Positions 4,939 to 43,578 of a stretch of 64,000 nucleotides of DNA are shown piece by piece. Where the stretch lies: the IMG/VR virus record IMGVR_UViG_3300033076_001578, positions 4,173 to 68,172 of that record; one strand, 5' to 3'. Source of the stretch: a virus (Duplodnaviria; Caudoviricetes). Under the pieces are notes generated by a model. The model was given only the letters and a program-made list of their open reading frames with translations, was not told where the DNA came from and searched no databases. A program made the position numbers and the translations under genes. Positions within the stretch are counted from its first letter, which is position 1, and every line of letters starts with the position of its first letter.

Positions 4939-5478
4939 CTAGGCGGCCTTCTTGGCGCCGGACGCTCCGCGCATCCGGCTCGAAGTTACATTCGGGACCG
5001 GAGCGAGCGACTTGAGGGGAATTTTTAGCTCGTGTTCCTTCCCGAGTAAATAGGTTAGCACGATTCCGCAGCCCTTCGAGTACCGGAGGAAGCGGCCGCG
5101 CAGATCGCGGAAGGGACCGTTCGTCGGCATAACGTCATCGCCCGGCGCGTACCGGCGCATCAGCTCGTCCTCGGACTTCTCGCTGAAGTCCCCGCGCGCA
5201 AGGCTTTCGCGCAGGTCTTCGACGAATCCCCTCGGGAGGGCCAGGGGGGCCAAAGTATGGATCGGGAGCACTTTGTGGATCCCGCGGGTCCGGTTGACCA
5301 GCCCGGCTTCGTCGGGCGTCTCCAGTTCGACGAACACGTAACCGGGGAACAGGCGGGCGGCTCGGTCCTTGGAAATGACTGGCGCGTAGGCGGTGATGCC
5401 CTCGCGGCTCAAATGGTAGATCGCCGTCGCTTCCAGCCCCGGCAGCGCCTGGGCCACGTACCACCTGTATTCAGCCAA
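4939..5478 (-). CDS. NusG/RfaH-family transcription elongation/antitermination factor
   Basis: NGN domain (WYVAQ...LFPGYVFVEL...TRGIHKVL) followed by a KOW domain (GDDVMPTNGPFRDLRG). Confidence 0.88.
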   Translation of the reverse strand: MAEYRWYVAQALPGLEATAIYHLSREGITAYAPVISKDRAARLFPGYVFVELETPDEAGLVNRTRGIHKVLPIHTLAPLALPRGFVEDLRESLARGDFSEKSEDELMRRYAPGDDVMPTNGPFRDLRGRFLRYSKGCGIVLTYLLGKEHELKIPLKSLAPVPNVTSSRMRGASGAKKAA

Positions 5479-5523
5479 GCCCGCGCTCCCTCGATCAGCT
5501 GCCGGGGAACCCTAACCACGCCG

Positions 5524-5548
5524 GGAACGGGAAAGCGATAGCCGCGTT
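5524..5548 (+). promoter_or_regulatory. Candidate EcfG/SigT-type promoter GGAAC-N16-CGTT
   Basis: Exact GGAAC (5524-5528), 16 nt, CGTT (5545-5548) in the divergent intergenic region. The same genome encodes an EcfG-like sigma factor. Confidence 0.5.
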
Positions 5549-5564
5549 ATGCGGCGCCCACTCG

Positions 5565-5752
5565 AAATTGTATTAGGTATTAGCAATATACTTGAGGAAC
5601 GATATTTGCTTCCCCTCTTTCAAAAGGAACAAATAGGGGGTGTCCTCTTATTCCCTATTATGGCGTTCGTTCCGATATCGTTTTTAGTTTGGAGTAGAGT
5701 TATTTCTTACTCTATTATAGATTCGATTTCCGAAAAGGTCCTTAATATAGCT
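5565..5752. other. AT-rich non-coding stretch between the divergent arms (candidate origin, promoter or packaging region)
   Basis: By far the most AT-rich segment of the window. It contains the tandem TATTAG repeat and several GGAAC/GTTCC pentamers. Confidence 0.55.
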
Positions 5753-6199
5753 ATGCGAAACAAAACCGAATCCCCTGACCTCACCCCGGAACCGTCGATG
5801 GTGTTCGTCGACGGCCGTACCATCGTCCAGTATTGGGGTGCAGCGAAGCGACGCGCCTTCGGCAAGCTGATCGAGCTGGCGAACCAGTTCGACCTCCACG
5901 TCCACGAAGTCCCGGTCCCCGATGGCGGCAGGGTAAAAAAGAAATGGACTCACAAGCGCGTCGACATGACGATTGCGCTGGCCACGATCCACGACAATCC
6001 TGGAATGTTCTTCGACGACTGGAGCAAGTTGTGGATGGACGGTGCCCAGGTTACGACGCTCCTGCGCAAGGAAGCCCGCAAAAAGGCCCAGATAGCGTTA
6101 TCCAAGCTCTTCCTCGACGGGAAAGTGGAAAAACGCAGGAACGCCGAAGACGGCAGGCTGATGCTTTTTCCGATCGGGAAAATGAACTATGGCGAATGA
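5753..6199 (+). CDS. Hypothetical protein with a possible C-terminal winged-helix
   Basis: Start taken as ATG 5753, not 5549, because the upstream part is the AT-rich region. The C-terminus ALSKLFLDGKVEKRRNAEDGRLMLF resembles a wHTH wing. Confidence 0.6.
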   Translation: MRNKTESPDLTPEPSMVFVDGRTIVQYWGAAKRRAFGKLIELANQFDLHVHEVPVPDGGRVKKKWTHKRVDMTIALATIHDNPGMFFDDWSKLWMDGAQVTTLLRKEARKKAQIALSKLFLDGKVEKRRNAEDGRLMLFPIGKMNYGE

Positions 6200-8685: not shown

Positions 8686-10499
8686 CCAAGGCCCCGATCC
8701 CGTCCCTCCTCGAGCTCCTGCACTGGCCCGAAGGCCAGGCGCCCTACGCCAAGCAGGAGGAGGCCCACCAGGTCAGCGCGGCCGAGCGCATATACGCGCT
8801 GTTCGCCGAGCAGCGGGTCGGCAAGACCATCATCGTCCTGGGCACTTCGATGTTCCAGTACGGCAGGTTCCTCGAAGCCGGTGGCTTCGGGAAGAGAGCG
8901 GCGCCATCGGGAAACAAGCCCCCCAGCCCCAAGCCCGAGGGCGTCCGCGATCTCCTTCCGTCCCGCTTCACCAAGGGCCAGTCCGGCAAGCGCCCGGGCA
9001 CGTTCAAGGATCCGCGCATCGACGACCTGCCGAAGAAGCCGTCGCAGCCCGGGTTCATATACAGGCCCGCGCACTGGGCCACCAAGGGCCTTGACGCATT
9101 GGTCGTCGTAGCATTGCCGTCCGGCGTGCCCGCCAACTGGTCCGACGAGATCGACGTGCGGGTCCCCAAGGATGCGAACGCGCGCGTGATGGTTTGGAAT
9201 GCACGTAAAGCTGACGGCGCCGAGTACGCCGAGCGCTTCAAGGAGCTGCTCGAGCACGAGGGCCTCGCCTGCTTCCTCATCAACGGCGAGGCAATCAACA
9301 CGGACACGGCCAAGAAGGCGATGGGTACGTTCCTGCGCTGCCGACGCGCACTAGTGGTAGGTGATGAGACCTCGCTGATCTGCTCGCAGCCCGGCAACGT
9401 CCGGTCCAAAGTCATGGAAGCCATCAAGGGACTGCCGGGATCGGTCGCGCGCCGGATCCTCGACGGCACCCCGGGCGACGAAAGCCCGCTGGACCTCTAC
9501 AGCCAGGTCGGCTTCCTCGACTACAAGATCCTCGGCTTCGACAGCTGGATCGCTTTCAAGAAGTACTACGCCGAGTGGGAGGAGAAGAAAATCTACGTCG
9601 CGGGCGAGGAGCGCAAGTTCCAGGGGCTCGTCGTCGACGAGCAGGGCCGCAAGAAGTACCGCAACCTTGACGAAATGGGCCGCCGTCTGGCGCCGGTGTC
9701 GTTCCGCGTGCGCCGCGCCGACGTCTTCGAGATCCCTGACAAGGTGCGCGTCCCGTACCACTTCGACCTGTCGGCCGCCCAGCGCGCCGTCTACGATCCA
9801 CTGCGCGAGGAGTTCGAGGCCTGGCTGGCGGACGGAGAAAAAGTCACCGCGAAGCATGCCCTCGCGCGCATGACGCGACTGGACCAGGTCCGCGGCAACT
9901 GGTGGCCGCCGCAGGTGATTCCGGCGATCTGCATGGAATGCGAGGGGGAAGGATGCCCCGTCTGCAACGACGTCGGCGCAATACTGTCCAAGACCGCCAA
10001 GAAGATCATCGACGCGAAACGAAACCCCCTGCTCGACGCGGCCGCGGACGTCCTCAGCATCAACGCCCGCGACCCCGGCATCGCCTGGGCCGTGTTCGAT
10101 GAGACCATTGACGGAATTATGGCGCTTGCATCCGCGCGCGGCCTGAACCCACTGCGGTACGACGGGCGCGTCGACGACGAGCAAAAGGCCGTCAACAAGC
10201 GCGAGTTCCAGGCCGGTCACTCCGGCCTGCTGGTGGGCAAGGAAGCGTCGGCGGGCAGGGGGCTCAACCTGTCCAAGGCGAAGTGGATGATGTATTGCGA
10301 GAATGGGTATTCGAAGCGGAAGCGGTCGCAGTCCGAGGACCGTGCCGAGGTTGCTGGTCGGACGTTTGGCACCGGCATCTACGACCTAATCGCCGCCGAC
10401 ACCTACGACCAGAAGAAGCTCGACGCGCACTTCGCCAAGGGCGAGGTGTCCGACACCCTTTGGGCCGCCATCGCGGCCGCGCGCCAGGAGGCGGCATGA
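8682..10499 (+). CDS. SNF2-family (SF2) helicase
   Basis: FAEQRVGKT (motif I), VVGDETS (II), LDGTP (III), SPLDLYSQ, AGRGLNLS (V), QSEDRA (VI). Confidence 0.9.
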   Translation: MTKAPIPSLLELLHWPEGQAPYAKQEEAHQVSAAERIYALFAEQRVGKTIIVLGTSMFQYGRFLEAGGFGKRAAPSGNKPPSPKPEGVRDLLPSRFTKGQSGKRPGTFKDPRIDDLPKKPSQPGFIYRPAHWATKGLDALVVVALPSGVPANWSDEIDVRVPKDANARVMVWNARKADGAEYAERFKELLEHEGLACFLINGEAINTDTAKKAMGTFLRCRRALVVGDETSLICSQPGNVRSKVMEAIKGLPGSVARRILDGTPGDESPLDLYSQVGFLDYKILGFDSWIAFKKYYAEWEEKKIYVAGEERKFQGLVVDEQGRKKYRNLDEMGRRLAPVSFRVRRADVFEIPDKVRVPYHFDLSAAQRAVYDPLREEFEAWLADGEKVTAKHALARMTRLDQVRGNWWPPQVIPAICMECEGEGCPVCNDVGAILSKTAKKIIDAKRNPLLDAAADVLSINARDPGIAWAVFDETIDGIMALASARGLNPLRYDGRVDDEQKAVNKREFQAGHSGLLVGKEASAGRGLNLSKAKWMMYCENGYSKRKRSQSEDRAEVAGRTFGTGIYDLIAADTYDQKKLDAHFAKGEVSDTLWAAIAAARQEAA

Positions 10500-10732
10500 C
10501 CTTCAAGAACCTGCGCCCGGACCTGTCGACCTCGGAGAAGGCCGCGCGGACGCTCGAACGCCTCGCGAAGCTTGTCCGGGAGAAGGAGGTCTTCGCGGCG
10601 TCGTTCACGTTCGACGGCGGCCGCGCGAACTTGAACGACTCGATGTTCGGATTCTCGAATGCGCAGCCGCCGTCTATGAAGATCGAACTATACGGCCGCG
10701 TCGACGCGCCGAAGAAGCGGAGGAAGTCGTGA
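10496..10732 (+). CDS. Hypothetical protein
   Basis: 78 aa from ATG 10496 with ATGA coupling. Confidence 0.65.
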   Translation: MTFKNLRPDLSTSEKAARTLERLAKLVREKEVFAASFTFDGGRANLNDSMFGFSNAQPPSMKIELYGRVDAPKKRRKS

Positions 10733-10845
10733 CCGCTCGCCTCGCGATTGCCCTTTCGTTGTTGATCTTGGTTCTTGCCGGAACCGGCATCGCCGCGCTC
10801 GATCAGCTTTCGTACGCCAACGCTCCGAAGGAGTGCTCGAAATGA
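10729..10845 (+). CDS. Small hydrophobic peptide (38 aa)
   Basis: GTGA and ATGA overlaps on both sides; TM-like LAIALSLLILVLAGTGIAAL. Confidence 0.55.
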   Translation: MTARLAIALSLLILVLAGTGIAALDQLSYANAPKECSK

Positions 10846-11081
10846 CCGACTGCCTCAGCTGCCGCCACGCCAAGCCCGCGCAAGCGCCCGACGGCCGCAT
10901 CGACTTCAACGTCAAGATCTGCGTGCGAATGCCGCCGACCCCGATCCTGCTACCGGCGGCGCCGGGCCAGGTCCAGCTCTCGGCGATGTTCCCGACCGTC
11001 GGAAAGGGCGTCGTCTGCGGCGAGCACGATCCGCGCCTGATTGGCGAAGAGACTCCTGCGGAAGGGCAGAAGACGCAATGA
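10842..11081 (+). CDS. Small Cys-rich protein
   Basis: CLSCRH...C.RMPP...FP.V....CGEH pattern. Confidence 0.7.
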   Translation: MTDCLSCRHAKPAQAPDGRIDFNVKICVRMPPTPILLPAAPGQVQLSAMFPTVGKGVVCGEHDPRLIGEETPAEGQKTQ

Positions 11082-11317
11082 GCGACAAATACGTCATCCT
11101 TAAAGGGACCATGTTTTTCAAGGACGCGGAGCTCAAGACGAAGACCAAGAGGCTGTCGGAAGCTGCACTGTTTTCAAAACTGGAGGCCGAGGCAGCCGTC
11201 GAAGGTAAGAAGGGTGATGCCGTAACGTTCCAGCCGCTCTCCTTTTACAAGGATTTTCTCATCGGCGAGCGTGTACTTATCGACGAGAAACTTTCAGTGT
11301 TAGGGATCGGGTCATGA
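11078..11317 (+). CDS. Hypothetical protein
   Basis: 79 aa with ATGA coupling on both ends. Confidence 0.65.
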   Translation: MSDKYVILKGTMFFKDAELKTKTKRLSEAALFSKLEAEAAVEGKKGDAVTFQPLSFYKDFLIGERVLIDEKLSVLGIGS

Positions 11318-11772
11318 AGCGCATCATCGTCTGCGGCGGCCGCGACTACGGGCGCGTGATCCCGGGCAGGTCCTTCGAATACCCGCGCCGGATCGTCGAG
11401 AAGAAAAAGCTGTGCGAGGCCCTCGGCAAGCTGCTGGTCGAGCATGGATCCTTCCAGCTGATCCACGGCGGAGCTAAAGGTGCCGACGCGGCCGCCGACG
11501 CCTGGGCGCGCGAGCAGCGCGGCCTTCCCAAGCCGATCGTCTTCGAGGCCCTTTGGGACGACTTCACGAGCCCGTGGTCGGTCCGCAAGGTCCGCAAGTC
11601 CGGGCCGCGCAAGGGCACCGAGTACAACGCCGCCGCGGGACCGATCCGCAACGCCAAGATGCTCGAGGAGGGCAAGCCCGACCTCGTCGTCGCGTTCCCA
11701 GGCGGCGACGGCACCAAGGACATGACCGACCGCGCCCGCGCGGCCGGAGTTGCAGTGATGGAGATCAAGTAG
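11314..11772 (+). CDS. SLOG-superfamily protein (DUF2493/YspA-related)
   Basis: IIVCGGRDY, IHGGAKGAD, AAGPIRN, VVAFPGGDGT.DM motifs. Confidence 0.88.
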   Translation: MKRIIVCGGRDYGRVIPGRSFEYPRRIVEKKKLCEALGKLLVEHGSFQLIHGGAKGADAAADAWAREQRGLPKPIVFEALWDDFTSPWSVRKVRKSGPRKGTEYNAAAGPIRNAKMLEEGKPDLVVAFPGGDGTKDMTDRARAAGVAVMEIK

Positions 11773-19016: not shown

Positions 19017-19403
19017 ATGAGCCAGTTCCGCCTCATCAGGAAGGGCTTCCCCGCGGACGGCGTTCCGCGGAGGGATCCCATGTCGCACGCGAGCTTCCGC
19101 GACCTCTACGAGGCGAAGTTCGAGCCGCCTGGCGGCGCGCGGACGTTCGCGGAGTACGACGCCGCGGCGGCCGGTCGGTTGTGCGCCCGGCGGCCGCACG
19201 TCATCCTGCGCGAGGATCCCATGTTCGGCCGCCGCGGTTACGCCAAGGAGGTCATCGCGGACGCGAAGCACGGCTACCTCGTCCTCGTCATTGCCTTCAC
19301 GGCGCGCAAGGACCAGCGCGGCGACTGGCAGGAGCCGCTCAAGCCCAAGGACTGCGACCGGCGCTACTGGCCTCCCGGCAAGGTGGAGTTCGCCCCGCGA
19401 TGA
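19017..19403 (+). CDS. Hypothetical protein
   Basis: 128 aa from ATG 19017, coupled to the helicase. Confidence 0.65.
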   Translation: MSQFRLIRKGFPADGVPRRDPMSHASFRDLYEAKFEPPGGARTFAEYDAAAAGRLCARRPHVILREDPMFGRRGYAKEVIADAKHGYLVLVIAFTARKDQRGDWQEPLKPKDCDRRYWPPGKVEFAPR

Positions 19404-20869
19404 AGAAGCGGCTCGTCCTCGGCGGTCCCGGCGCAGGCAAGACGGCGCGGTTGCTCCGCATCGTCCACGCCGCGCTCGAGGCTGGCTCGCGGCCGGACCG
19501 CATCGCCTTCGTCAGCTTCACGCGGGCCGCCGTCGACGAGGCCAAGCGCCGGGCCTGCGAGGCCTTCGGCCTGACGCCCGACGAGCTGCCGCACTTCCGC
19601 ACCGTCCATTCCCTTGCCTTCCGCGAGCTGGGAATCGGCCGGGCCGACGTCGTCGACGACAACCACCTGGTGCGCGTTTCCGAGCTGACCGGCGAGCTCC
19701 TGTCGACCCTCGAGGATCCCTTCTCCGACGCGCCCGTGCAGGGCCGCCAGGCCGACCCGCTGCTGACGCTGGACCATTACGCGCGGACGACCTGTCGCGA
19801 TCTGGAGACCGCCTGGTCCGACCATGGCAGCGACCTCGAATGGTTCCGGCTCCAGCGGTTCCACCGCGCCTACACTCAATACAAGGACGACGAGGGCGTC
19901 CTCGACTTCACGGACATGCTCTCGCGTTACGCCGACGGTCCGAGCGCCCCGCTCGACCTGGACATCGCCGTGGTCGACGAAGCCCAGGACCTTTCGCGTC
20001 TCCAATGGCGCGTCGTCATGAAGGCGTTCGCGGGCGCGGGCGAGCTGGTGGTCGGCGGCGACGACATGCAGATGATTCATCACTGGGCGGGCGCCGACGA
20101 AGAGCGCTTCCTCAGCCTGGAGTCCGAGGGCTTCCAGATCGAGAACCTCCCCCTGTCCCACCGCCTTCCTGTTACGCCCTTCGAGCTGGCGCAGGAGATC
20201 GGGCACCGCATCGAGCGCCGGTACCGCCGCGAGTGGCGGCCATCGGACCGACCCGGGTCGCTGGACTGGGTCGCCAGCGCCGACGAGGTCGACCTCAGCG
20301 TCGGGAAGGACTGGCTGATGCTGGCCCGGACGCGCTCCCAGCTGGCCGGGCTGGCCCAGGCGGCCCGGGACCAGGGGGTCGCATACGAGATAAAGGGCGA
20401 GCGGTCGGTCATCTGGGCCGACGTGGTTGCCATCAAGGCCCACGAGGCCCTGCGCGCCGGGCGCGAGATCGGCCGGGACGACGCCGACGCCCTGGGAAAG
20501 GCCGTCGGGCGCCGCTTCGAGGCCTATGAGGGCGGCAAAACTGCCGCGGAGCTGGGCTACGACGCCGGGCGGATCTGGCACGATGCGCTAACGGCCATCC
20601 CGGTCGAGCGCCGGGAGTACTACCTGACGATCATGCGCCGCGGCGGCAAGCTGACCGACGATCCGCGCGTGCGAATCGACACCATCCACGGCGCCAAGGG
20701 TCGCGAGGCCGAGGGCGTCGTCCTCAGCACGGACATGACGTACCGGACCAGCCGGGCGATGGAGCTCGACCCCGACAGCGAGCACCGGGTCTTCTACGTC
20801 GGCCTCACGCGCGTCATGGAGCGGATGTTCCTGGTCGCGCCGCAGACCGCGTACGGGTACCGGATATGA
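19400..20869 (+). CDS. UvrD/Rep-like SF1 helicase (replication cluster)
   Basis: GGPGAGKT, SFT, FRTVHS, VVDEAQD, GDDMQMI, TIHGAKGRE, YVGLTR. Confidence 0.93.
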   Translation: MKKRLVLGGPGAGKTARLLRIVHAALEAGSRPDRIAFVSFTRAAVDEAKRRACEAFGLTPDELPHFRTVHSLAFRELGIGRADVVDDNHLVRVSELTGELLSTLEDPFSDAPVQGRQADPLLTLDHYARTTCRDLETAWSDHGSDLEWFRLQRFHRAYTQYKDDEGVLDFTDMLSRYADGPSAPLDLDIAVVDEAQDLSRLQWRVVMKAFAGAGELVVGGDDMQMIHHWAGADEERFLSLESEGFQIENLPLSHRLPVTPFELAQEIGHRIERRYRREWRPSDRPGSLDWVASADEVDLSVGKDWLMLARTRSQLAGLAQAARDQGVAYEIKGERSVIWADVVAIKAHEALRAGREIGRDDADALGKAVGRRFEAYEGGKTAAELGYDAGRIWHDALTAIPVERREYYLTIMRRGGKLTDDPRVRIDTIHGAKGREAEGVVLSTDMTYRTSRAMELDPDSEHRVFYVGLTRVMERMFLVAPQTAYGYRI

Positions 20870-21354
20870 ACTCAGGCGCTCCGCGCGACGACTTCGAGCG
20901 GGAGCTCTTCCCGCAGCTGAAGTTCTTCGAGCGGTTCGCCAAGAAGCTCACGATGAACTCGGAGCGCGGGGAGGACCTCTACGGCGAGACGATCATCAAG
21001 ATGCTCCAGCACAAGGAGTCGTACCGCCTGGGGACCAGCATCCGGAGCTGGGGCTGCTTCATCATGCGCAACATCTTCTATAGCGAGCGCCGACGCTCGT
21101 GGCGCTGGCAGGAGTGGAATGACGTTTTCGACGTGACCTTGCGCGCCAACGACAACCCGCACGCGCAGCTGGAGCTCAAAGAAGTGCTCGAAGCACTCAA
21201 GTACATCCCGATCGAGCAGGCGGAGGCGTTCATGATGATCGCCGAGGGAATGACGTACGAGGAGGCGGCTGCGGAAGCGGGCGTCGAAGTAGGAACGATG
21301 AAAAGCCGCGTCAGCCGCGGCCGCGCCGACCTGGAGAAGTTGTTTGCTAACTGA
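20866..21354 (+). CDS. ECF sigma factor, EcfG/SigT(SigU)-like
   Basis: Region 2 EDLYGET...SIRSWGCFIMRNIFYSERRRSWR and region 4 IPIEQAEAF...GMTYEEAA...GTMKSRVSRGR. Confidence 0.92.
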   Translation: MNSGAPRDDFERELFPQLKFFERFAKKLTMNSERGEDLYGETIIKMLQHKESYRLGTSIRSWGCFIMRNIFYSERRRSWRWQEWNDVFDVTLRANDNPHAQLELKEVLEALKYIPIEQAEAFMMIAEGMTYEEAAAEAGVEVGTMKSRVSRGRADLEKLFAN

Positions 21355-21394
21355 CTTCGACATGTTCGGATACAGGAGGATCGAGGCGATCGAC

Positions 21395-22216
21395 ATGGGT
21401 AAATCCGTCTGCAACGACCCGGGCGACCCGCCCGAGTTCCTGATGCTCCGTCCCGACCAGCTGGTGGTCAACGAGGAGTACCAGCGCCAGCTCACGAAGT
21501 CGTCGCTGGCCCAGATCAAGCGCATGGCCCAGAACTTCGACTGGGACAGCTACAAGGCGCTCAATGTCGCGAAGACCGACACCGACGGCGTGTACGAGGT
21601 CGTCGACGGACAACACACGGCGATCGCGGCCAAGACGAACGGCCTGGTGCCGTTCCTGCCATGCCTGCTGGGCCGCGGGACGACGCTGAAGGAGAAGGCG
21701 CGCGGGTTCATCGGCATCAACACGGAGCGGACGGCGCTTACGCCCATGGCGATCTTCAACGCCAAGGTCGCCGCCCAGGACGACGAGGCCATCGCCGTCG
21801 AGACGGCCATGAGCCGCGCTGGCGTGACCCTGCTCCAGCTGCCGCCGAACAACCGCAAGTACAACGTCGGCGACACCGTGGCGGTCGGGACGATGCTCTC
21901 GGTCGCCCGCAAGCATGGCGACGCGCGCCTGTCGACGGTCCTGCGCGTGGCCGTCCTCGCCAAGGCGGCGCCGGTCACGGCCATGCTCATTAAGGCGCTG
22001 AACGAGGTTGTGCCACTGGAATCGACGCAGGCTGACCGCGATGCGATCGTTGCCGCACTGACGCGCCAGGGGATCCCGCGGCTCGAGGTGGTTGCTACGG
22101 CCGAGACCGCGGTCGGGCACCGATCGTTCGAGACGATGGCGGACAAGATAGCCGAAGCCGCGGGCCTCCCGCGGATGCGGCGCGGAAAGGCGATCAAGAA
22201 AAGGGACAGACGATGA
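21395..22216 (+). CDS. ParB/Srx-fold protein (DUF6551-like, DGQH motif)
   Basis: L.VNEEYQR, FDW, YEVVDGQHT and A..FI..N..R motifs. The start could also be ATG 21362. Confidence 0.8.
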   Translation: MGKSVCNDPGDPPEFLMLRPDQLVVNEEYQRQLTKSSLAQIKRMAQNFDWDSYKALNVAKTDTDGVYEVVDGQHTAIAAKTNGLVPFLPCLLGRGTTLKEKARGFIGINTERTALTPMAIFNAKVAAQDDEAIAVETAMSRAGVTLLQLPPNNRKYNVGDTVAVGTMLSVARKHGDARLSTVLRVAVLAKAAPVTAMLIKALNEVVPLESTQADRDAIVAALTRQGIPRLEVVATAETAVGHRSFETMADKIAEAAGLPRMRRGKAIKKRDRR

Positions 22217-22704
22217 AAGGTCCTGTCCTCTTCAAGAAACCATGTAAATGGTGCAAGACGATGTTCCGTCCGAAACGGATGGGATACAATGCGAAATACT
22301 GCTCGGATAAGTGTAAGCGCGCAAACCAACGAGATCGCGTTCGCAGGAATAATCCAGAACAGTTAAGGTTGGCACGACGTCGGTCGTATGAGCAGACTCG
22401 CGCGCATCCAGATCGTTTGGAAAAGCATCAGCGATATTCCGTTGACCATAGATATAAAACCAGAAAATGGCTCGCCGATTACAAGATGAAACGTGGATGC
22501 GTTGACTGTGGATATAAGAAGCATCCGGCTGCACTACAACTTGACCATGAAGGGACAAAAACAATTTCTATTTGTCGTGCCCGGTCGAGTATCCCGCGGT
22601 TAAAAGCTGAGATCAGGAACGGGAAGTGTAAAGTTCGGTGCGGCAATTGCCACGCGATTAAAACCTGGGAACGTAAACAAGCGAAAAAGGAGTCGAGGAA
22701 ATGA
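22213..22704 (+). CDS. HNH-type endonuclease with N-terminal Zn motif (low GC)
   Basis: CKWC...YCSDKC, CVDCG...LQLDH and KCKVRCGNCH motifs. Confidence 0.8.
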   Translation: MKGPVLFKKPCKWCKTMFRPKRMGYNAKYCSDKCKRANQRDRVRRNNPEQLRLARRRSYEQTRAHPDRLEKHQRYSVDHRYKTRKWLADYKMKRGCVDCGYKKHPAALQLDHEGTKTISICRARSSIPRLKAEIRNGKCKVRCGNCHAIKTWERKQAKKESRK

Positions 22705-34646: not shown

Positions 34647-35083
34647 CCATCGAATCAAACTTCTGGTCGACCGTCCACGCGAACCTCTCGCCGTACGGCG
34701 CGCTCAAGCGGATCGAAAATTCCGCCGACAAGGGTACCGGCGACGTCGCCTACTGCCTGACGCGCCCCAAGCCCGGCTCGCTGCCCGCGAGCGGCTGGCT
34801 GGAGCTGAAGGTCGCCGAGTGGCCCGCCAAGCCGCTGACGTCCATACGGCCGCGCCATCTGACGAAGGACCAGGTCCTCTTCGCCGAGGAATGGTCCGAC
34901 GCGGGCGGCCGGGCGTGGTTGATCCTCCGCGCCACCCCCTGGTACCTGCTGTTCGACCCCGCCGGGATCAGGGGGCTCTACGAGGGCCGCGTGTGCGCCC
35001 GCGACGCGCCCGCGATCGCCAAGGCGGCGTCCATCGGTCGTTTCCCTACCGGGCCGGTCCTGAAGGCCCTGACGTCTGTATAA
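34643..35083 (+). CDS. PD-(D/E)XK nuclease, VRR-NUC/Holliday junction resolvase-like
   Basis: E..FW, RIEN...G..DV, WLELK, Q..F motifs. Confidence 0.85.
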   Translation: MTIESNFWSTVHANLSPYGALKRIENSADKGTGDVAYCLTRPKPGSLPASGWLELKVAEWPAKPLTSIRPRHLTKDQVLFAEEWSDAGGRAWLILRATPWYLLFDPAGIRGLYEGRVCARDAPAIAKAASIGRFPTGPVLKALTSV

Positions 35084-35095
35084 AGGAATCGTTAT

Positions 35096-35476
35096 ATGGT
35101 GAAGAAACCCCGAAACGTGGACTTTGACCTGGGTCGCCGGACGCCCGCGGAGCGGCTCTGGCTGGCCCGCAAGGCGGCCGGGCTGACGCAGGTCCAGGCC
35201 GCCCAGCTGGCCGGGGTCGGCGAAAACGCCTATGGCGACGCCGAGAAGGGCCGGTCTGCCGCTGTCCGCGGACCTGTGCCCGGGATTCCGGGCGTCCGGC
35301 GCCCGACGCTGGCCCAGCTGCTTGCCCTGGCCCGGCGCCGCTGGGGAGGCGGCCTGGCGGCCGTGGCGTCGGAGGCTGGGTTCTGCCGGGTCTGGTACCT
35401 CGCCAAGGAGCGGTCGGGTAGCCGGGCGCTGAAGCTTCACTGGGAGGGCCTGGGCTTTACTTTTCCGCGGAAATGA
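35096..35476 (+). CDS. XRE-family HTH protein
   Basis: LWLARKAAGLTQVQAAQLAGVGENAYGDAEKG. Confidence 0.8.
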   Translation: MVKKPRNVDFDLGRRTPAERLWLARKAAGLTQVQAAQLAGVGENAYGDAEKGRSAAVRGPVPGIPGVRRPTLAQLLALARRRWGGGLAAVASEAGFCRVWYLAKERSGSRALKLHWEGLGFTFPRK

Positions 35477-35485
35477 CGCTAGGGT
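35456..35485 (+). promoter_or_regulatory. Sigma70-type early promoter TTTACT-N18-TAGGGT
   Basis: CTTTACTTTTC copy overlapping the end of the XRE gene, followed by ATAACCGGAGACG and ATG 35509. Confidence 0.7.
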
Positions 35486-35508
35486 GCTTCGATAACCGGA
35501 GACGAGCC

Positions 35509-35766
35509 ATGCGGACGAAGTACACCGACCCCGACTTTCGCAGGACCCCGCGGACGGCGCTGTTCTGCTACCAGTGCCAGAAGGACCTCAAGCCCGACAG
35601 CCCGTACCGGATGGTCTACATTGTAGACGGCATGCACGCGCTGCATCCGGACGACGTTGCAGGCTACGCCAAGGGCAAGAACGACATCGGATGGATCCAG
35701 ATCGGGTCCGACTGCGCGCGGCGCCTTGGCCTGGAGTGGTCAGTGCCGAAAAAGGAATCACAGTAA
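35509..35766 (+). CDS. Small Cys-containing hypothetical protein
   Basis: FCYQCQKDL...IGSDCA motif. Confidence 0.7.
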   Translation: MRTKYTDPDFRRTPRTALFCYQCQKDLKPDSPYRMVYIVDGMHALHPDDVAGYAKGKNDIGWIQIGSDCARRLGLEWSVPKKESQ

Positions 35767-42494: not shown

Positions 42495-42878
42495 TTACTG
42501 TCCCTTCCGCAGGAGGCCGGTGGCGGCGATCTTGACCTTCGCGTCTTCGATCGCCTGCATGACCTTCTGCAAGTAGTTGTTGGTGTCGGTGACGTCACCG
42601 CGCATGACGGCTTCGGCGGCGCCGATCGTCGAGCTCACGGCGGCGTCGGCCTTCGCCAGGTCGGCGAAGACGGCGCGGTCGTGGCAGAGCATCGGCGCGG
42701 GCTGCGGGCAGACCGGCAGTCGGCCGTAGCTGATGACGAGGGGCTGGTAGACGTCGCCGTAGGACTTGAGCGCGACCTTGACGGCCAGCTTGGCGTCGGA
42801 CGTGACGGCATTGTCGGGGAGGAAGGCGCAGCCGCCGGTCACCAGGACCAGCACTGCGGCGGCAAGTATTCGTTTCAT
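42495..42878 (-). CDS. Putative lipoprotein in the lysis cassette
   Basis: MKRILAAAVLVLVTGGC signal with a lipobox-like Cys. Confidence 0.7.
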   Translation of the reverse strand: MKRILAAAVLVLVTGGCAFLPDNAVTSDAKLAVKVALKSYGDVYQPLVISYGRLPVCPQPAPMLCHDRAVFADLAKADAAVSSTIGAAEAVMRGDVTDTNNYLQKVMQAIEDAKVKIAATGLLRKGQ

Positions 42879-42925
42879 GAACTTTCCCTTCATGGTACGC
42901 GCCAGGACCCGGGCGCGCGGCGGGA

Positions 42926-43270
42926 TTAGGGTCGGGGCTGGCCCGTATGCCGGTTCGCCGAAGCATATTCGAGGGTGCCGACGCGGGATTTAAGGTCGTC
43001 GATGCTCCCGGTCGCGAAGCGGATGGCGTCGTCGCGGCGGTCGAAGTCCCGCTTCGCGTCGGCGCCCTTGTAGGGATCGGCGAGCGCGGACGCGATCTGC
43101 GACTTCATGACGGCTATGTCGTTGCTCATGGCGAGCAGGACGGTCAGCCCCCATACGGACGTGGGCGCCAGGACAACCGCTGCGAACACGCCAGCGAATC
43201 GTCCGATCATCTGGAAGACGGTGCTCTCGTTCAATTTCCTGATCCGGTTGTTGAAGTCTTGGCTGGTCAT
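42926..43270 (-). CDS. Single-TM coiled-coil protein in the lysis cassette
   Basis: MTSQDF..., TM FAGVFAAVVLAPTSVWGLTVLLA, then heptad-like helix. Confidence 0.65.
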   Translation of the reverse strand: MTSQDFNNRIRKLNESTVFQMIGRFAGVFAAVVLAPTSVWGLTVLLAMSNDIAVMKSQIASALADPYKGADAKRDFDRRDDAIRFATGSIDDLKSRVGTLEYASANRHTGQPRP

Positions 43271-43578
43271 TTGCCGCAAGCCTCACGGATGGCGGCGTTG
43301 TTTTTACGGGTCGGGGAAATGGTTTCGGGAGTATCGAAGACATTCGCCGCGGACTCGTCGACCGGGTGGTCAGGGTCCGGGGCATTAAACGTGACGATGG
43401 AAATTTGGGAACAAGGAACGAATCGTCCAGTCGGTGCGTTGTTGGTTTGCGCCGGACTGGGTACGGGCGGTGGCGGGGAATTATTTTTCGCGCCGGTTGT
43501 CGGGGTCGTTGTACACGACGCGAGGATCATCGACAACGCGATCGCGGGCAGCGCCCGCCCTGTCCGCGACGTCGACAT
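43267..43578 (-). CDS. Outer-membrane spanin (Rz1-like lipoprotein)
   Basis: ALPAIALSMILASC lipobox, Pro-rich, additional Cys residues; its start lies inside the upstream TM gene. Confidence 0.75.
   Translation of the reverse strand: MSTSRTGRALPAIALSMILASCTTTPTTGAKNNSPPPPVPSPAQTNNAPTGRFVPCSQISIVTFNAPDPDHPVDESAANVFDTPETISPTRKNNAAIREACGK

Follow-up and report, generated by a model that had tools for sequence, protein, structure and literature searches.

An EcfG-like sigma factor without NepR or PhyR in a tailed phage, and its recurrent ParB-like neighbor

Throughout the Alphaproteobacteria, the sigma factor EcfG acts as the master regulator of survival under stress, of symbiosis and of traits related to virulence, and its control by partner switching between NepR and PhyR is a textbook case. 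A gene for an EcfG-like (ECF15-related) sigma factor is present in the viral record IMGVR_UViG_3300033076_001578 of IMG/VR, which comprises 68,172 bp with a CheckV completeness of 100%. The window analyzed here is the 64,000-nucleotide stretch covering bases 4173-68172 of this record, and positions are counted from its first letter. It belongs to a tailed, myovirus-like phage with a genome arranged in two arms, a minus-strand arm for terminase and structural genes and a plus-strand arm for replication. The sigma gene (20866..21354, (+)) encodes 162 amino acids with sigma2 and sigma4 only. It follows a UvrD-like helicase gene of superfamily 1 (SF1; 19400..20869, (+)), identified by Pfam UvrD-helicase (90 bits) and by a DNA helicase PHROG, the start of which is uncertain (19181 or 19400). 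The stop codon of the helicase gene and the start codon of the sigma gene overlap in the sequence ATGA, so that both genes appear to be co-transcribed and probably translationally coupled. On its other side, the sigma gene is abutted by a gene for a DUF6551, ParB-Noc-KorB-like protein (21344..22216, (+); Pfam DUF6551, 44.7 bits), with an 11-nucleotide overlap if translation starts at TTG 21344 or a 7-nucleotide gap if it starts at ATG 21362. The identity of the sigma factor as phage-encoded, EcfG-like and devoid of its partners is well supported.

The open reading frame and the motifs quoted for it in the original prediction, RNIFYSERRRSWR and YEEAAAEAGVEVGTMKSRVSRGR, are present as described there. 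The Caulobacter SigT/SigU motifs given in the same place are genuine as well, since a nepR-linked Caulobacter EcfG (L085) reads ILRNQFYSEKRRSWR and YEEAAEICGCAVGTVKSRVSRAR. Pfam profiles locate Sigma70_r2 at residues 22-80 (33 bits) and Sigma70_r4_2 at residues 105-156 (43.4 bits), both exceeding the curated cut-offs. With sigma2, sigma4 and no further domain, the protein has the architecture of Group IV sigma factors, and it is also matched by PHROG 1740, 'RNA polymerase sigma factor' (84 bits). In the AlphaFold2 model, two helical domains are predicted with confidence and are joined by a disordered linker, the mean predicted local distance difference test (pLDDT) value being 82.6. In Foldseek searches, this fold matches those of extracytoplasmic function (ECF) sigmas, both from holoenzymes and from complexes with anti-sigma factors; the PhyR-type structures 3T0Y, 4QIC and 2LFW are also returned at E values of about 1e-3. 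The best match in the PDB is 5UXX_A (E=6e-24), followed by SigH (1e-11). The entry 5UXX is the co-crystal of Bartonella RpoE(EcfG) with NepR, as established by a cellular NepR matching its chain B and by the Foldseek title.

In a large protein database, six homologs of about 162 amino acids share 58-98% identity with the phage sigma and two more share 44-50%. Beyond these homologs lie thousands of Caulobacterales proteins of about 190-235 amino acids, with identities of at most 48%. The closest homologs P0002-P0006 are 58-78% identical to the phage protein, and the Caulobacterales EcfGs about 40-48%. The nearest cellular relatives were compared as a set of 80 loci. A nepR gene lies within the flanks of 77 of them and a PhyR-like gene within those of 76, the Pfam NepR call being confirmed in five genomes; in the Caulobacterales and Rhizobiales loci, the NepR gene is found immediately 5' of the sigma gene. 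This linkage identifies the nearest cellular family as genuine ECF15/EcfG as defined in the literature (PMC8103513). Among the NCBIfam models, the best for the phage sigma is PRK12547 with 103.7 bits against a cut-off of 219, a threshold that a true nepR-linked Caulobacter EcfG also fails to reach (191 bits), and the top five models are identical for both proteins.

Phylogenetic trees agree with this assignment. With all other ECFs of three Caulobacter genomes included, ECF15 and the phage clade are split from 29 other ECFs with a value of 98 in the Shimodaira-Hasegawa-like approximate likelihood ratio test (SH-aLRT). The same split obtained 98 in a reduced set and 87 in another tree, the outgroups ranging from 12 to 29 other ECF sigmas, all from Caulobacter genomes. 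The protein thus groups with nepR-linked ECF15 and not outside it, and the claim that it is EcfG-like holds. Whether the phage clade falls inside or beside the cellular EcfG crown group changes between trees. Two observations were made on the cellular side. The contig JBLNCT010000105.1 (L006), labelled as a metagenome-assembled genome of a Parcubacteria group bacterium, carries a Caulobacter-type phyR/nepR/ecfG locus with a sigma nesting within the Caulobacteraceae, and is probably mis-binned. A complete Caulobacter genome (G002) encodes three EcfG-family paralogs (1729975-1730403, 632822-633247 and 3654801-3655235), only the first of which is nepR-linked; these score 205-262 bits to the EcfG profile, and every other ECF of this genome at most 80 bits.

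Megablast of the region against deposited phages gave no match, and tblastn against 50,697 deposited phage records (E<1e-5), a collection from which close relatives may have been excluded, gave only three distant matches of about 33% in unannotated fecal contigs. Single-sequence scans of IMG/VR and metagenomes detected no relatives; with an alignment of the phage clade, none were detected in IMG/VR and only cellular-type matches of at most 40% in the metagenomes. Further viral sigma loci were recovered with a broader alignment. Once the sigmas of L213 and L233 are added, the clade of the window's protein comprises 10 members (support 100), two of which are encoded by other complete phages. These data bear on the possibility that the gene is a passenger, that is, a recently acquired fragment of a host gene without a role in the phage. 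The signature motif that it has in common with Caulobacterales EcfG would agree with such an origin. Identity to any cellular protein does not exceed 48%, however, and the existence of a fully supported clade with members in other complete phages speaks against a passenger. So do a GC content at third codon positions (GC3) of 0.88, similar to that of the neighboring genes, the tight coupling to both flanking genes and the finding of the same cassette in unrelated phages, as described below. A passenger is therefore highly improbable.

The same low identity means that a recent capture is not supported. The signature RR[SA]WR, otherwise typical of Caulobacterales and Hyphomonadaceae EcfG, is found in the window's clade, and other viral sigmas carry signatures of the Sphingomonadales type (L218) or the Rhizobiales type (L216, L224, L274). 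When all viral sigmas are included, they cluster together (SH-aLRT 90); without the longest branches, the viral sigmas join separate host orders, with the window's clade as sister to Caulobacterales EcfG at a support of 75, or 86 in another tree. A single clade of all viral sigmas, tried as a candidate, dissolved in this way, but it is still allowed by the approximately unbiased (AU) test (p=0.22), and neither a single nor a multiple origin is claimed. The original prediction had described the gene as captured and as pointing to the host group. The first statement is uncertain, as a single old viral lineage was not rejected. The second stands, with RR[SA]WR and the best tree position indicating Caulobacterales at that support of only 75-86. 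Together with a GC content of 65%, they make a host from the Caulobacterales likely.

The partners of EcfG were searched for in the whole 68-kb record. No match to NepR (PF18557, E<=10) and none to a receiver domain (PF00072), and thus to PhyR, was obtained anywhere in it, so that the absence of both, as previously claimed, extends to the entire phage. The phage sigma therefore differs from ECF15 in the trait of linkage to nepR and a divergent phyR. Its residues were compared, across the phage clade, with those of 77 nepR-linked EcfGs. The positions of regions 2.3 and 2.4 (W62, I66, R68, N69, S73, R76, R77, W79 and R80) and of the region 4.2 recognition helix (G143, T144, K146, S147, R148, R151 and R153) are conserved across the clade. 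Other surfaces are changed in the phage sigma, namely one face of the region 2.2 helix (D36E, Q40G, A46M and W47L) and parts of sigma4 (R119A, I123M, L124M, F129M, I137E, C138A and A141E), and each of these replaced positions is at least 91% conserved in the 77 EcfGs. Position 40 is a glutamine in all 77 EcfGs as well as in 27 of 29 other ECFs, and position 119 is an arginine in 25 of the 29; the phage clade has G/S/A and A/V/S at these positions, which we take to lie on core-contacting surfaces. W47 likewise counts among the near-universal residues replaced on the surfaces that face the core or the anti-sigma factor. The closest relatives of the phage sigma carry S/T instead of N58, a residue presumably near the -10-reading loop. 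The protein also lacks the C-terminal tail of about 35 amino acids found in Caulobacterales EcfG and one residue of the 'VGAGG' turn.

According to a review, NepR wraps around the outer surface of EcfG and prevents it from binding the polymerase (PMC8103513). The remodeling of this surface is compatible with an escape from NepR, as judged from residue patterns. SigU-like paralogs, for which studies cited in PMC3892343 detected no NepR interaction, keep these residues (Q40, W47 and R119 in L012 and L014), and the phage substitutions therefore do not read as a known escape signature. An opposite role can also be conceived, in which the protein acts as a sponge for NepR, a PhyR-like sigma mimic that frees the host EcfG and is itself barely or not at all active in transcription. 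PhyR itself is a precedent for sigma mimicry (PMC8103513), and the closest solved relative was crystallized wrapped by NepR. The loss in the crown clade of the near-universal Q40 and R119 would fit this role too. What makes a sponge doubtful is the pattern at positions 146/151/153, which are K/R/R in 8/8 members of the phage clade as in cellular EcfG, fitting selection for DNA binding, whereas E/E/Q is found there in those sigma-like domains of PhyR that could be aligned. In that respect, the phage sigma is not a PhyR-type decoy. Moreover, the record encodes no receiver domain, and many changes fall on the surfaces that NepR embraces (PMC8103513), which if anything would weaken NepR binding.

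Promoters of the EcfG type were scanned with the exact consensus; scans allowing one mismatch were too noisy for use. In the window, GGAAC-N15-18-CGTT occurs three times against 3.0 expected. One of these is an exact GGAAC-N16-CGTT at 5524..5548 (+), a candidate stress-type or sigma-autoregulated promoter that lies in the divergent gap between both arms, facing the sigma-bearing arm, 205 nucleotides before the ATG at 5753. An E. coli-type sigma-70 scan of this junction gave nothing, a scan that does not model Caulobacter promoters. Another exact site, GGAAC-N17-CGTT at 43415-43440 (+), is located within the structural arm, in a gap of 201 bp where it runs antisense to the genes around it, and could be due to chance or be an antisense start.

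Comparable sites occur at other viral sigma loci. In the complete temperate phage G006 (L313/L314), exact N16 sites (43417-43441 and 42623-42647, (-)) stand 34 and 31 nucleotides before the first two genes of the sigma-bearing arm, which extends from 42649-43383 (-) to 34658-35698 (-). Its first gene encodes a CI-like repressor with HTH_3 and Peptidase_S24 domains, and the arm continues from the repressor side through a DnaN-like clamp, the sigma and a DUF6551 protein up to an integrase. This arrangement looks like an immunity switch wired to a stress sigma. A gene of the OmpR type with a winged helix-turn-helix diverges on the opposite side. In L223 (IMGVR_UViG_2795386131_000002), an exact site at 5404-5428 stands 35 nucleotides before the start codon of the sigma gene (5463-5975), a lone plus-strand gene among minus-strand genes that looks like a moron-type gene driven by itself or by host EcfG. 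Over 12 viral sigma loci, four same-strand sites were counted within 4 kb upstream against 0.86 expected (p=0.011), a count from which the window's own site at 5524-5548 is excluded by distance. The promoter originally proposed at that site is at chance level by count, and gains from its position and from the comparable sites of G006 and L223, two viral sigma loci that lack NepR. Taken together, there is moderate evidence that viral EcfG-like sigmas keep the promoter specificity of EcfG and are connected to promoters of this type within the genomes that encode them.

These sites also bear on the possibility that the phage protein blocks the host stress response by occupying core polymerase or the promoters of the general stress response unproductively, or by competing with host EcfG. 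Phages often shut down host defenses and stress programs, and the altered residues of regions 2.2 and 4.1 could yield a factor that is competent for binding and poor in initiation. Consensus promoters precede phage genes in three viral lineages, including the L223 sigma itself, and such promoters make sense only if they are activated by the phage sigma or by host EcfG. This argues against a blocker, for which only a slim chance is left.

The DUF6551 gene next to the sigma encodes a protein with a predicted N-terminal ParB/Srx domain and a helical DNA-binding region; its AlphaFold2 model (pLDDT 92.8) is matched by ParB, Noc and KorB in Foldseek. An invariant YQR...DGQH[RT]...PC motif is found in DUF6551 proteins, and DndB, a protein with a DGQHR motif, is a promoter-binding regulator (PMC4507180). 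Homologs of DUF6551 abut EcfG-like sigmas, in either gene order, in L213/G006 (10417-11373), L218 (9096-9998), L224 (9093-9983) and L227 (9132-9965), the last with a GC content of 36%. A search that started from DUF6551 recovered further pairs in L233/G007, L258 and L274. When loci are ascertained through the sigma, DUF6551 adjoins it in five of ten distinct viral loci; when they are ascertained through DUF6551, a sigma is found in only 9/80 viral loci (seven of them distinct), always directly adjacent. The pair occurs in viral contigs of 36-68% GC with almost no other genes in common. It behaves as a mobile cassette, recurring in the window's phage (G000), G006 and G007 although these share only about 6 of 85 genes.

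A functional link between the two proteins is hypothetical. The sigma and the ParB-like DUF6551 protein could form a mobile two-protein transcription module that replaces the control by NepR and PhyR and lets phages read host stress. The ParB-like protein would load on or mark phage DNA and would recruit, activate or restrain the orphan sigma, comparable in function to the gp45 clamp and gp33/gp55 of T4 or to the pair of KorB and KorA. The sites GGAAC-N16-CGTT would be used ahead of the CI-like repressor (G006), the sigma (L223) or the early arm (the window's phage), and positive feedback independent of NepR could lock in a developmental decision of alphaproteobacterial phages. Such a module is quite unlikely.

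Other genes that place the window in a phage are those for portal, TerL, TerS, tape measure, baseplate, PolA, primase, RNR and ThyX. From the divergent junction, an AT-rich intergenic region of 274 bp (5479..5752) delimited by sequence and gene map, the minus arm runs with the NusG-like gene, TerS, TerL and portal (4939 down to 858, (-)), and it includes the tape measure and baseplate genes at 42.5-64 kb (-). The plus arm (5753-42004, (+)) carries helicases, primase, RNR, the UvrD-like helicase, sigma, DUF6551, HNH, ThyX and PolA. The HNH endonuclease gene (PHROG 2255; 22213-22704, (+)), which has a low GC3, directly follows the pair of sigma and DUF6551, at a place where the GC content falls locally to 0.60 (22-24 kb) from about 0.65, and looks like a probable later insertion. 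The NusG-like gene (4939-5478, (-); Pfam NusG, 39.8 bits; PHROG 'transcription antiterminator') is the first of the terminase and structural arm and stands beside the divergent junction. Its product may serve the late genes as an operon-specific antiterminator; neither G006 nor G007 has a homolog.

This organization has to be considered with respect to a role of the protein as the phage's own middle or late sigma, which would have drifted in specificity from EcfG and would drive structural genes like SPO1 gp28/gp34 or T4 gp55. Many phage sigmas act in this way, and the match to PHROG 1740 is in line with it. The gene also lies in the early, replication arm, the usual location of a late-gene activator, and the N58S/T change together with the remodeled region 2.2 could alter specificity. 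The upstream sequences of the late genes give another picture. None of the structural-arm genes is preceded by an EcfG consensus site, and the 13 gaps analyzed upstream of late-arm genes share no 7-mer beyond shuffles. The late arm is instead headed by the antiterminator candidate, the DNA-reading residues are the same as in cellular EcfG, and the G006 homolog sits in a lysogeny arm with repressor and integrase, not in a lytic cascade. The proposal that the sigma drives middle or late phage genes is thus not supported, with consensus sites at chance frequency and no late-arm promoters of this type. A structural arm that starts with a NusG-like gene and lacks EcfG-type promoters indicates that the protein is probably not a late-gene sigma, and a drifted late specificity is unlikely.

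The explanation favored here is that the phage encodes a working, partner-less sigma of the EcfG/ECF15 type that is coupled to promoters of the stress type and can switch on the stress regulon of the host. This explanation stands about an even chance. Its family, gene context, missing partners, residue pattern and site positions are established here, and its promoter specificity, activity with the host core, insensitivity to NepR and effect on the host are inferred. The protein would be made from the replication arm within a unit of helicase, sigma and DUF6551, and would most likely guide host core RNA polymerase to GGAAC-N16-CGTT promoters, since it reads promoters with the same residues in regions 2.3/2.4 and 4.2 as cellular EcfG. 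Positive feedback and a link to the stress state of the host would come from the site at 5524-5548, which heads the sigma's own arm. Promoters of the host general-stress regulon would be fired too, as a by-product or on purpose, and this would follow both if the sigma is indifferent to NepR and if it titrates NepR away and thereby releases host EcfG.

Several points weigh against this explanation. The replacement of Q40 and R119 may alter binding to core RNA polymerase, and the change at N58 could shift the preference for the -10 element, both as read from the sequence. Exact consensus sites in the window do not exceed chance frequency. The site at 5524-5548 stands 205 nucleotides away from the first ATG and 15 kb from the sigma gene. 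Finally, G007, which carries the same cassette of sigma and DUF6551, has no intergenic consensus site.

A literature search gave no description of a phage-encoded EcfG. A phage EcfG without either partner would represent a natural, constitutively free form of this regulator, and a ready tool for asking which surfaces NepR requires. In addition, it would probably exemplify a virus that taps or forces a host stress program, parallel to the sporulation sigmas of Firmicutes phages. The linkage to a ParB-like gene and the stress-type promoters before repressor and sigma genes suggest a wider, undescribed coupling of early or lysogeny decisions to host stress.

Among known systems, canonical EcfG/SigT (ECF15) has the same layout of sigma2 and sigma4, the same profile families, the same tree grouping and the same promoter-reading residues as the phage sigma. 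It differs in being cellular, linked to nepR and phyR, and equipped with a C-terminal tail, none of which applies to the phage protein. Non-canonical EcfG paralogs, such as C. crescentus SigU, Sphingomonas EcfG2 and R. etli EcfG2, are likewise unlinked to nepR (PMC3892343). This source cites studies in which no NepR interaction was seen for the Caulobacter and Sphingomonas paralogs, and the EcfG1 and EcfG2 regulons are described there as sharing the GGAAC-N16-CGTT motif. These paralogs are encoded on chromosomes or plasmids and keep the residues of regions 2.2 and 4.1, whereas the phage sigma belongs to a separate, long-branched clade. The sigma-like domain of PhyR has an EcfG-derived two-domain fold and could bind NepR, in which it resembles the phage sigma; PhyR has in addition a receiver domain and, where aligned, non-basic residues at the DNA-contact positions, and the phage sigma has neither. 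Bacillus phages encode homologs of sigF and sigG that can turn on the sporulation network of the host but are not required for lytic growth (PMC9429907). Those sigmas belong to Group III instead of the ECF Group IV and act in another host phylum and program, and neither linkage to a ParB-like gene nor consensus promoters on the phage are described for them in that work. They nevertheless represent the closest conceptual precedent, in which an alternative sigma factor of a host survival program is carried by a phage.

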